DNA of 63,581 nt, the filler included, from Collodictyon triciliatum (taxonomy: Eukaryota), in the NCBI GenBank assembly GCA_043381765.1. It is 4 parts of 4 records of this genome, joined end to end, with 100 filler letters (N's around TTAATTAATTAA, not from the genome) between each part and the next. Parts side by side here need not be neighbours in the genome. Positions count along the whole stretch, not along the records: positions 1 to 16,833 come from JBHJMP010001508.1; 3 more parts are not named here. One strand, written 5' to 3'. Position numbers and translations under genes: made by a program. The stretch's first letter is position 1, and each line of letters begins with the position of its first letter. Below the pieces are notes generated by a model that was not told where the DNA came from, did no database searches, and saw nothing but the letters and a program-made list of their open reading frames with translations. Below are positions 12,920-15,264 of this stretch, piece after piece.

Positions 12920-15264
12920 GCGAATTCTTCGTGGACAGCATCTCGGAACTGAACAATATCGAAAAGAGGACTTGACAGAAGTCTGCCCAAACGCGGCTGA
13001 ACTTAATTATAATAGAAGGAGTATACCATCTTTCGATTGGTTAACCTGGTGCGCAAGTATCCAAGGTCTCATCACTTTTTTTTCACAAAGGTTTTATAGT
13101 GGCGAGGGCTGCCAGGAAAGACACGACAACCTATTTTTTAAAGAGAAGGTATGCACTGTTGAAGGATTGAAAGAACTTTGTTGAGTATACTATTAGCGCT
13201 GTTAAAGTCCCTTGTCAAGAATACACTTTGTTTGCTTTCTGAGCGATTGCATTCTTAACACATGAGGCATCTATACAACTTTTTTTAATTTCCTTTCGGT
13301 TGCATATGTTCCAGTTCTTTTTCGCAGCTACAACACATCTTGATGTTCTAAATTCATCTACACTAACTGTTTCAAAACGTTTGGATACTATTTTTCGTAA
13401 TTCTCTTCCGATTGTTGGCATAGAAAGTTTCATCTGAGAGTTTCTTCTCCAGTCTCCATACGCCAGTACAACATCCTTGCTAAATGTCTTTTCGATTCGG
13501 TCCATAATCAATTGTTCACTTCTTTTTGTATTAACATAATGTCCCCATCTCATCTTTCGAAAAAGTCACTTGCTCATAAAGTCTGGATAGTTCTATCTGG
13601 TATCTTGATTTCATAGATACATATTCTCGAAATTTTTCATAATCGACAGCGTATGAATTATGTTTACTCAGTTCTGTCTCTAAATCGATTAAAAATACTC
13701 TTGATGTCTCAAACCGCTGATTCTCTTCAAAAGTCATGTGACCAAAAGAAACATCACTTTGTAAATCTGTTTCCATGCATATCCCTTAAGAATTGTACTT
13801 TTCTCTTTTCTCGCGCAAAAGTATTTTGTGATTTTTAAGAGATTTGCTATCATGTCCTGTTTGGTGTGCCATGTAACGTGATTTCTTACCTGTCTCATCC
13901 ACCATGTAAACCAAATGAAACTTGCCTGCGTCCACTCAAACTATTTTTTTTTTGTCGCTAATAAAGATAACTGCTCTTCGGAAAGTTCATCTATATAAGC
14001 ACATTCTTGGTTTTTTTTTGATTAAATTGGAATTTTGAATTTGAAATACCTTTCTTTTCAAACAATAATGACACCGCCAAGCTGTCTGTTTGTATCATGT
14101 ATTTGAAATTGTAGTCTCTTTGATGAAAGACACTCTTCTTCATTTCAAAGAAGTCAACCCCATAGAGTCTCTTTGCATACTGATTTATTCTTCACTAATG
14201 ATATTTTTTCCAGTTGATACTAATACATCTATCAAACATGCAGTATCTAGAGTAATATGACATGGTATATTGTCAGTTCTTATAGGGATTGGTTGAAACA
14301 GTTTGGTTCCAATGTCCTCAAAAATGCAATTCATGTAAATCAGACATGGAATGTACTTACTTGGATTAACTTTGACGTCATATTCGGTATCTTTTACAAT
14401 ATCTCTGGGAATGATACGATTCAAATGTATTTTAGCCCTTCTTGATATTGTTACGGTATTTTGAGTTTCTTGAATATGGCTTTTTTTTTAACTTTCGTAA
14501 CTCTGCATTTTTAACAGCTTCCGTCATATTCTCATATTTAGGAACTGTTTGATTCACAAAGCGCAGTAGCCTCTTTACAAAATGTTCCTTAATGTCATTA
14601 TGATAAGCTGTTAACATTTGCCTCGCCAAGTACGGTAATACATGAGACAGTCCAACCAAGGGAAAGCGTTCTTCTTGGGACAAAAGGAATCGAAAATCAT
14701 TGAGATAAAAGTCATCACGTCATTACTCATTTCTGGATGTTTTAATCTTGCGGGTCTATCTTGTGAAACTATTCCGACTGTCTTTGAAACGTACAAAAAA
14801 CTTTTCATCGATTGTTGGGAGCTGTTGTGATTTCAATATGTAGCATCTTGCAAACAGATAAGTGTCGGTAACCAAATTATGACACAGTAAAACCGTATCG
14901 TTGATTTTGTCATAGTCATCCGCATTCTTTACAATCAACTTTAGAGATGCTTTCACATTTCGATATTCTGGTTTTACAGACTTTAGATTCTCGGACTCAA
15001 GACGTTATATTTTCTTCATATGAAAGTCTTTGTTTTACTTTTTCCTTTAGAAAACTACCAAGTTTTCAATTTCAATAAAACTTTAGTCAATCAGTCAATT
15101 TAATAATAATAAAAAAAACTGCACAAAATCAATTTAGGTAAAATTAAGCATCTACCGAGACTCTCAAAATGTGCGCTTTGTGACAAACAAACACATAAAA
15201 AAATTTTTACAAGTGATTTGAGACAAAACGCCGAGAGCCGATTCGGCGAGTTCGAAAGGACAGC
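12920..15264 (-). mobile_element. Putative non-autonomous Fanzor-carrying element, boundaries uncertain
   Basis: Intronless island in an intron-rich genome containing only the Fanzor ORF. No transposase ORF, clear TIR or TSD was found by eye. Ends are inferred from weak flanking motifs. Confidence 0.45.
13138..15019 (-). pseudogene. Decayed Fanzor1 (TnpB/Cas12-related RuvC RNA-guided nuclease), about 625 codons, intronless
   Basis: Fragments join in order: MKKI*RLE...VKASLKLIVKN..KINDTVLLCHNLVTDTYLFARCYIL; LSHVLPYLARQMLTAYHNDIKEHFVKRLLRFVN; YDVKVNPSKY..YMN..KLFQPIPIRTDNIPCHITLDT; IQTDSLAVSLLF; RuvC-I IV*VDAGKFHLVYMVD (Asp 13930-13932); LAYGDW..MPTIGRELRK; VDEFRTS (Glu 13353-13355); zinc finger CCSC...C*EC; RuvC-III TRDFNSA (Asp 13207-13209). 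Multiple stops and frameshifts. Confidence 0.9.

Follow-up and report, generated by a model that had tools for sequence, protein, structure and literature searches.

A Decayed Fanzor1 Copy in the Draft Genome of Collodictyon triciliatum, with Its Nearest Relatives Found on Giant-Virus Contigs

A 63,581-nucleotide stretch of DNA from Collodictyon triciliatum (Eukaryota; GenBank assembly GCA_043381765.1), referred to here as the window, contains a Fanzor1 pseudogene at 13138-15019 on the minus strand. The window is composed of four separate assembly pieces of ~14-17 kb, and the pseudogene is located on the first of these (1-16833; JBHJMP010001508.1). The locus is very probably a decayed copy of a compact mobile element in which Fanzor1 was the only gene. 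This copy is dead; we infer that it makes no protein and does nothing now, and nothing suggests that it has been reused for another purpose.

The pseudogene extends from an ATG at 15019-15017 to a TAA at 13140-13138, a distance of 1,882 nucleotides or ~627 codons. From 15019 to 13138 the minus strand is a succession of short open frames that use all three phases. Reading them against P0001, an intact relative of 627 amino acids, gives one intronless gene of ~627 codons. The initial annotation had described a single intronless gene of ~625 codons across frameshifts and stops, and the frameshift-aware reconstruction, colinear with P0001, bears this out. The features it had named are also present on the minus strand where it placed them: the TAA at codon 5, the TGA two codons before the Asp of VDAGK, GDW, VDEFRTS, the CxxC..CxxC finger and TRDFNS.

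When the whole window is searched with P0001 (tblastn), five colinear segments are found that together span residues 15-587 (summed E 3e-64, best segment E 4e-26). Residues 15-169 match 14977-14531, residues 205-274 match 14427-14221, residues 297-337 match 14152-14033, residues 367-587 match 13950-13186, and residues 454-556 match 13583-13281. P0001 has no match elsewhere in the window, and all 151 of the 151 family proteins searched match solely this region of the 63.6 kb. In the frameshift-aware alignments, identity is 281 of 563 positions (49.9%) to P0001 over its residues 6-600 and 271 of 582 positions (46.6%) to a second relative, P0002, over its residues 4-606. The frame at 13215-13565, a piece of 116 amino acids, has P0001 as its sole match when searched against longer proteins, with 63% identity over 66% of the piece. 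The same piece matches the solved Fanzor1 of Parasitella parasitica (9cf0) at E 6e-5, with GDW and DEFRTS aligned. A Pfam scan of nine open reading frame (ORF) pieces of the window returned nothing above the family cut-offs, the pieces being too short and diverged. Judged from these sequence comparisons, the similarity of the locus to P0001 is far beyond chance.

The N-terminal half of the pseudogene (14221-14998, minus strand) is spread over two frames with several breaks and corresponds to P0001 residues 15-169 (39% identity) and 205-274 (46%). In the P0001 model described below, the counterpart of this half is a REC-type helical region with a predicted local distance difference test score (pLDDT) above 90.

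Fanzor1 Identity and Catalytic Residues

The family is Fanzor1. This call is based on full-length sequence and fold matches, not on the shifted catalytic Glu alone. By sequence, P0001 matches the solved Fanzor1 chains PpFz1 (E 5e-31), SpuFz1 (1e-26) and GtFz1 (1e-22), and the search of solved chains returned no TnpB, Cas12, Fanzor2 or other nuclease at E<=1. A model of P0001 was built with a 40-row family alignment and has a pLDDT of 87.2 and a predicted template modelling score (pTM) of 0.84. It matches SpuFz1 with a template modelling (TM) score of 0.77-0.82 (E ~1e-29), PpFz1 with 0.61-0.73 and GtFz1 with 0.67-0.69, whereas TnpB (8h1j) reaches 0.22-0.35 and Fanzor2 (9b0l) 0.21-0.26. The matches to TnpB and Fanzor2 are to the core alone, at E 2.5e-6 to 2.9e-5. 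The Fanzor1 identity given in the initial annotation therefore stands, with sequence matches of 5e-31 to 1e-22 and a fold TM of 0.67-0.82 for SpuFz1 and GtFz1. The Fanzor1-type fold is read from the intact P0001; the window copy is itself too broken to fold, and its N-terminal half has 39-46% identity to P0001.

Bacterial TnpB (ISDra2, PDB 8h1j) and Fanzor2 (mimivirus ApmFz2, PDB 9b0l) have the same RuvC and zinc-finger core and the same RNA-guided mechanism, but the long helical N-terminal half of P0001 is of the Fanzor1 type. A neighbouring serine-recombinase TnpA would be expected for Fanzor2 or IS607 TnpB; no ORF with any transposase domain was seen beside the locus.

The metal ligands of SpuFz1 have been named as D383, E541 and D606 (PMC10432273). 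The fusion-chain numbering of SpuFz1 carries an offset of 394 residues, which was worked out from the P0001 alignment, and P0001 residues D373, E532 and D580 align with these three. The window has Asp, Glu and Asp at the positions aligned with P0001 D373, E532 and D580, so the placement of the D/E/D residues at catalytic positions is confirmed through P0001. The Gly of GDW is kept as well, and so are the four cysteines of the finger. Seven P0001 positions are invariant in 40 of 40 aligned relatives: D373, P374, G498, E532, R579, D580 and N586.

The RuvC-I motif is found at 13921-13938, where the TGA at 13938-13936 is followed by V-D-A-G-K with the Asp codon at 13932-13930. DPG has been described as the signature around the Fanzor1 RuvC-I Asp (bioRxiv 10.1101/2023.08.09.552727). 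The window reads DAG, with Ala in place of a Pro that is invariant in 40/40 relatives. This reads as decay of a dead copy and gives no ground for exclusion from Fanzor1. In GDW (13449-13457, in the context AYGDW), Gly occupies the canonical RuvC-II position, which in TnpB is taken by the catalytic Glu, and the shifted catalytic Glu follows 34 residues later in VDEFRTS (13341-13361; Glu codon 13355-13353). The C4 zinc-finger remnant CCSC ... CLMC (13258-13335) has the TAA at 13287-13285 inside it and the TAA at 13257-13255 directly after it. RuvC-III is TRDFNS (13198-13215; Asp codon 13209-13207), with one codon lost just after RD when compared to the family RDxNSAxNI. All of these lie on the minus strand. 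A [TS][TS]-x-x-C4 zinc finger followed by an RD motif is the pattern described for Fanzor1 (PMC3627910), and it is present here as RT(S)-KM-CCSC...CLMC...TRD, with the Ser codon struck by a frame change.

The initial annotation had taken the Glu placement together with GDW and the long N-terminal region as characteristic of Fanzor1. Extreme conservation of both the Gly and the Glu within Fanzor1 was noted by Bao and Jurka (PMC3627910). The shifted Glu by itself does not single out Fanzor1, because the Gly-for-Glu swap and the shifted Glu are common to Fanzor1, Fanzor2 and some TnpBs (PMC10530073; bioRxiv 10.1101/2023.08.09.552727).

Other Copies, Giant-Virus Relatives and Disabling Lesions

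A search of public sequencing runs gave no strong holder (best share of words 0.10), and seven runs from four studies were listed. Five are freshwater metagenomes, and two are labelled organism A and organism B. No RNA run was among the holders listed. Contigs of four runs were aligned at >=85% likeness across a stretch ending at 15200 and divided into 30 bins. Run X1 gave two contigs of 151 nucleotides each that are identical to the window (13590-13735 and 14015-14165), with depth in 6/30 bins. Run X2 gave 128 contigs at 85-99% identity (depth in 26/30 bins). X3 and X6 gave 354 and 343 contigs at 85-99%, of which 26 and 16, respectively, are at >=99%, and both have depth in 29/30 bins. Up to 14-21 different contigs stack on single positions. 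The bin at 12900-12976 has zero depth in every run, and cover extends from ~12977 up to the end of the stretch at 15200. The 3' flank of the pseudogene at 12977-13137 (minus strand; contig depth above zero from bin 12977-13053) is therefore still inside the repeated unit, as is the 5' flank at 15020-15200 (minus strand; across bins 15056-15200 the depth is 22-48 in X2 and 65-85 in both X3 and X6). An ωRNA scaffold and the right end of the element would be expected in the 3' flank, and the left end would lie beyond 15200. This coverage is that of a dispersed repeat, at least 2.2 kb long and present in many diverged copies. The initial annotation had placed the locus in a Fanzor family hosted by this lineage, and the diverged copies in the X2, X3 and X6 contigs agree with membership of such a family. 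A further copy is probably represented by P0155, a fragment of 68 amino acids from a 539-nucleotide contig with 79% identity to the window piece.

The wider family is large. A phmmer search with P0001 against 1.84 billion representative sequences returned 4,259 proteins at E<=1e-3, 753 of them at E<=1e-30. In IMG/VR, 262 of the 313 matched stretches encode a relative, and many of these are on contigs of giant-virus metagenome-assembled genomes (MAGs) up to 289 kb long. Searching metagenome contigs with the window piece gave 129 pattern matches and 0 relatives. A three-row alignment recovered 21 further loci from metagenome contigs, with at most 57% identity over 76 residues and none closer to the window than P0001. 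A quick maximum-likelihood tree was built from 76 rows after near-duplicates at >=75% identity were dropped (162 to 76), with P0001-P0079 limited to 550-800 amino acids. The window copy has a long branch (0.96) and is sister, with approximate likelihood ratio (SH-aLRT) support of 92, to six rows made up of P0001, the giant-virus MAG contig L001 and four metagenome loci. The larger clade around it, of 24 rows (support 98), takes in all 7 IMG/VR representatives. We infer a past exchange of the family between giant viruses and their hosts.

Could the locus instead be an endogenous viral element, a piece left by a giant virus that integrated, and not a cellular transposon copy? The closest full-length relatives are on giant-virus MAG contigs, the 262 of 313 IMG/VR stretches that encode a relative point in the same direction, and the window falls within the clade of all the viral representatives. 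The sequences around the gene do not follow this pattern. When 1,364 ORFs from the +/-5 kb flanks of 80 viral loci were compared to the window, 318 segments matched inside the Fanzor region and 0 outside it. The neighbouring ORFs look cellular, one having a weak alpha/beta-hydrolase similarity and the other being a Q/P-rich low-complexity ORF. Moreover, hundreds of diverged contigs of just the 2.2-kb unit in single runs fit a dispersed repeat. The flank-ORF comparison gave no other viral sign in the window; it did not include a direct search for viral hallmark genes, and the viral elements are themselves transposons. A viral fragment is an improbable explanation, yet it is the strongest competitor to a decayed cellular element copy.

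The decay itself is extensive. The initial annotation had called the copy dead, and the counts agree: an ORF able to yield protein is absent from the window copy, which carries ~10 frame changes and 7-8 internal stops. Each guided path, whether on P0001 or P0002, has 10 frame changes, which run in both directions and involve one or two bases. The P0001-guided path has 7 internal stops, and the overall total is 7-8 when codon 5 is included; the exact lesion count depends on the guide protein and the alignment scoring. On the minus strand, the stops of the P0001-guided path are TAA 14453-14451, TAA 14024-14022, TGA 13938-13936, TAA 13788-13786, TGA 13568-13566, TAA 13287-13285 and TAA 13257-13255. 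On the P0002-guided path there is one more in-frame stop, the TAA of codon 5 (15007-15005), and the path closes at the TAA at 13140-13138. Immediately behind VDEFRTS, the reading frame is broken by the loss of one base near 13342. The TAA at 13788-13786 is within a stretch of ~33 extra codons near 13700-13800 (minus strand) that is absent from both P0001 and P0002 in the frameshift-aware alignment. Some of the aligned run contigs skip 71-85 nucleotides there, and the stretch holds neither a tandem repeat nor a readable clean in-frame GT-AG intron. With the frame broken 17-18 times, the invariant Pro lost and a long branch in the tree, no protein is expected from this copy.

Other copies of the family read sense codons at four of the window stops. 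At 13257-13255, a plus-strand change of 13257 A>T gives AAA in 3, 10 and 12 contigs of X2, X3 and X6, respectively, which is all of the contigs covering the site. At 13287-13285, 13286 T>G gives TCA in 3, 10 and 10 contigs (nearly all of the depth), and at 13788-13786, 13787 T>G gives TCA in 1, 12 and 5 contigs (all covering). At 14453-14451, 14453 A>C gives GAA in 1, 2 and 3 contigs, which is part of the depth in X2 and X3 and all of it in X6; this GAA is the codon for Glu196 of P0001. At or beside 5/10 frame-change sites, some of the run contigs differ from the window in length: they have an additional G behind 13341 or an additional A behind 14706, or they lack one base at 13954, at 14155, or at 14200 or 14203. 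Contigs at 85-99% identity read sense codons at four window stops, so the window copy is one member of a multi-copy family and has lesions that are for the most part private to it.

The same lesions bear on whether the gene is in fact intact in the organism and broken in the data by assembly or sequencing errors, such as those in homopolymer runs. Several frame changes are in or beside A-runs (14480-14490, 14010-14020 and 13944-13956), and the window is a draft of ~16-kb pieces that end in simple repeats. At least 7 of the lesions, however, are stop codons of the substitution type and not errors of length. The X1 contig at 14015-14165, which may come from the assembly sample, covers two frame-change sites and a TAA stop and is identical to the window throughout. 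The replacement of Pro by Ala in the invariant DPG and the loss of one codon after RD further point to relaxed constraint. An intact gene hidden by errors is thus very unlikely. Least credible of all is a gene kept functional by a non-standard code or by programmed frameshifting, as in some ciliates: TAA makes up 5/7 stops on the P0001-guided path and 6/8 with codon 5, but TGA stops are also present, the frame changes are of one or two bases and of either sign, four of the TAA sites are occupied in other copies by Lys, Ser, Ser and Glu codons and not by a conserved reassigned codon, and with standard stops the two neighbouring frames stay open for 652 and 484 codons.

Guide RNA and Element Ends

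In the relatives, a conserved block is found across the 3' end of the ORF. Its anchor, TTGATTTT, is present in 92/96 loci with a full-length ORF, and the block closes with ...GGCGTTT(T/G)AAAT-N7-9-GGTGTAAA; beyond it the loci diverge. The RNA-like element that straddles the 3' end of the Fanzor1 ORF in L001-L101 (for example, L001:6761-6963 and L007:6781-6983) closes in ...GGCGTTTTAAAT...AAAGGTGTAAA. It can be folded into a four-helix structure of 29 pairs, in which 90.5% of cells are paired; shifting the partners by one to three columns lowers this to 44-53%. Changes on both sides occur in 17/29 pairs, a level reached by 0/500 shuffles. A covariance model (R1) built from 41 relatives places the element directly after the ORF in 39/41 further loci. 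This placement fits the arrangement of ωRNA and right end described for Fanzors (bioRxiv 10.1101/2023.08.09.552727; PMC10530073). The element is likely the ωRNA scaffold and the right end for the giant-virus clade.

Weaker inverted partial copies of the terminal part of this element are seen on the minus strand of five loci, four of them upstream of the ORF. Three are a few hundred bases upstream (L087:381-442, L008:4592-4649 and L012:4302-4350), one is also upstream (L031:828-890), and one is downstream, at the locus end (L021:9758-9836). These are probably left-end inverted repeats of compact Fanzor-only elements. In L097 and L013, a left end beginning TTTACACC... is also seen.

The window copy does not share these features at a detectable level. 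R1 has no match at E<=10 in the pseudogene flanks, and when restricted to 12850-13300 it reaches at most 5.3 bits, on the wrong strand. A search with nhmmer and the trimmed alignment of relatives found nothing in the pseudogene flank, and the fold of the 3' flank is not significant (z-score -0.6). In a comparison of 12850-13200 with 15000-16830 for terminal inverted repeats, only chance-level matches of 15-25 nucleotides were found. A diverged or decayed ωRNA may still be present in the flank. The best R1 match in the window, at 55201-55386 (minus strand; 19.9 bits, rough E 0.0024), is AT-rich and is aligned mainly via the A/T-rich flanks of the model. There is no Fanzor-like coding sequence near it, and it is probably noise.

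Two resemblances seen by eye near the pseudogene gained no support. One is GTCTTTC...AAAAAGTGATGAGACC at ~13122-13060, a region where R1 and nhmmer find nothing. The other is a hairpin, CGCCGA-N8-TCGGCG followed by TTTT (15248-15220, minus strand), for which blastn of 15150-15460 is at shuffle level: the best match has 23.8 bits, and the shuffles have a median of 22.9 and reach 26.5 at the 95th percentile. With a GTAAAA 14 nucleotides after the TTTT, the hairpin spans 15248-15205 (minus strand) and is ~190 nucleotides upstream of the ATG, in the same orientation as the pseudogene. This hairpin recalls the right-end module of the relatives, with the same spacing; neither R1 nor nhmmer reports it. 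For the 3' flank, blastn of 12900-13140, run without a shuffle control, gave short matches only, the best of which (25.6 bits) is outside the repeat.

Several points weigh against the reading of the locus as a decayed copy of a compact Fanzor1-only element. No ωRNA scaffold, terminal inverted repeat or target-site duplication was found for the window copy, so the element is defined here by repeat coverage alone. The strict published Fanzor1 pattern, DPG...E-x6-[CH]xxC...C...RD-x5-N, matches P0001 and P0002; the window read-through does not match it, having DAG for DPG and the last Asn out of register. When the pattern is relaxed at the Pro and the last Asn is dropped, the window read-through fits, and among full-length family members the strict form fits 61/132 and fails on 71/132. 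The comparison of lesions with other copies covers 40/610 substitution rows and 12/82 indel rows, and so reaches only part of the lesions. The run contigs are at most 419 nucleotides long and provide neither a copy number nor a full intact copy, and X3 and X6 may be RNA or DNA while X2 is a metagenome. The viral label of the relatives comes partly from sampling, as IMG/VR was searched with P0001, and the 64 unlabelled rows of the tree could be cellular.

Known Fanzor Systems and Surroundings of the Locus

Fanzor1 proteins (Fz1) are found in fungi, protists, arthropods, plants and giant viruses (PMC10432273). Up to 122 Fanzor copies have been reported per genome (PMC10530073), and multi-copy Fanzor1 families in which some copies are decayed have been described since 2013 from fungi, protists, animals and giant viruses (PMC3627910, PMC10432273, PMC10530073). 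The locus is an ordinary further member of the Fanzor1 family, and this kind of remnant is already well known.

Fanzor1 is a eukaryotic nuclease of the TnpB/Cas12 type, related to the CRISPR-Cas12 enzymes. By homology to such systems, the ancestral element was presumably active as an RNA-guided nuclease element and spread within this genome. Its Fanzor1 would have bound an ωRNA read from the 3' end of the element itself, recognised a short target-adjacent motif (TAM) and cut matching double-stranded DNA. The predicted RuvC site would consist of the Asp of DPG, the C-terminally shifted Glu just before the C4 zinc finger and the Asp of RD. By analogy with TnpB, cutting probably helps the element persist.

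SpuFz1 of Spizellomyces punctatus, encoded by the element SPu-1 (PDB 8gkh, 9ceu-9cez), resembles the window family in its size class (~630 amino acids), in its D / shifted E / D site, in the Gly of GDW and in the C4 finger. It is a full-length fold match of P0001 (TM 0.77-0.82) at ~20% identity. SPu-1 is an element of ~2.1 kb with Fanzor as its sole gene (PMC3627910). It has 17 full-length copies, nine with intact ORFs (PMC3627910), so decayed copies are normal for a Fanzor1 family. SPu-1 has 33-bp terminal repeats and TA duplications, whereas none were found at the window copy, which is itself dead.

Among the sequences searched, the nearest relatives are the Fanzor1 genes of giant viruses (Nucleocytoviricota) from IMG/VR (L001-L080), together with the metagenome loci (L081-L101), and the window is sister to them in the tree. 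P0002 and P0001 have 47-50% identity to the window copy over the full length, and the genes are alike in being intronless and ~600-650 codons long. They differ in that the viral relatives have a strongly conserved, covarying 3' RNA-like element, to which the window flank has no match, and in that the genes of the window look cellular.

The Fanzor1 element of the Spodoptera frugiperda ascovirus is described as non-autonomous, containing a Fanzor1 of 606 amino acids only, with short terminal repeats and a guide RNA that reads out of the right end (bioRxiv 10.1101/2023.08.09.552727). A similar architecture is suggested for the window by the repeat unit of at least 2.2 kb, the two being likened by description alone. 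The ascovirus Fanzor1 is placed in an early-branching clade of insects and insect viruses (bioRxiv 10.1101/2023.08.09.552727).

Taken alone, the locus matters little. As a marker, it records the past presence in this genome of a Fanzor1 element that has its closest known relatives on giant-virus contigs. It could help trace virus-host exchange, and it points to runs where intact family members might occur. The covarying 3' RNA element of the relatives is a ready-made ωRNA candidate for the viral clade. A broader proposal, tentative and on balance doubtful, is that the source lineage and organisms A and B carry a large, possibly still active family of compact Fanzor1-only elements, sister to a clade abundant in freshwater giant viruses. 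If true, an RNA-guided nuclease element would have passed between virus and host fairly recently, and natural intact copies with their own unrecognised type of ωRNA would be available for study.

The four pieces of the window are joined by identical artificial spacers (44 N + TTAATTAATTAA + 44 N) at 16834-16933, 33774-33873 and 49636-49735. Linkage across these spacers is meaningless. Most of the six piece ends beside them are simple repeats. Long microsatellites, purine-rich or T/G-rich and with (AAAGAAAT)n and (TTTTTTGG)n among them, are found at 12214-12430, 16562-16833 and 16934-17230; they flank the Fanzor locus and close assembly pieces. The G+C content is higher at 8000-11000 (0.43-0.50) than around it (~0.35-0.40). 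A 484-codon frame at 9410-10864 (minus strand) is rich in Q, P and S and in short F/W-containing motifs, and matches no Pfam family. The neighbouring ORF of 652 amino acids is assigned by protein search to 'Eukaryota', with mixed phyla. The sole evidence in the window for the kind of host comes from the other pieces, where exon-like frames are found at 18496-19230 (minus strand) with leucine-rich repeats, at 28388-29134 (plus strand) with ankyrin repeats joined to an ammonium-transporter segment, and at 45235-46089 (plus strand) with the end of an AAA_11 helicase. By their sequence similarity, these are ordinary eukaryotic genes, and the window is eukaryotic.

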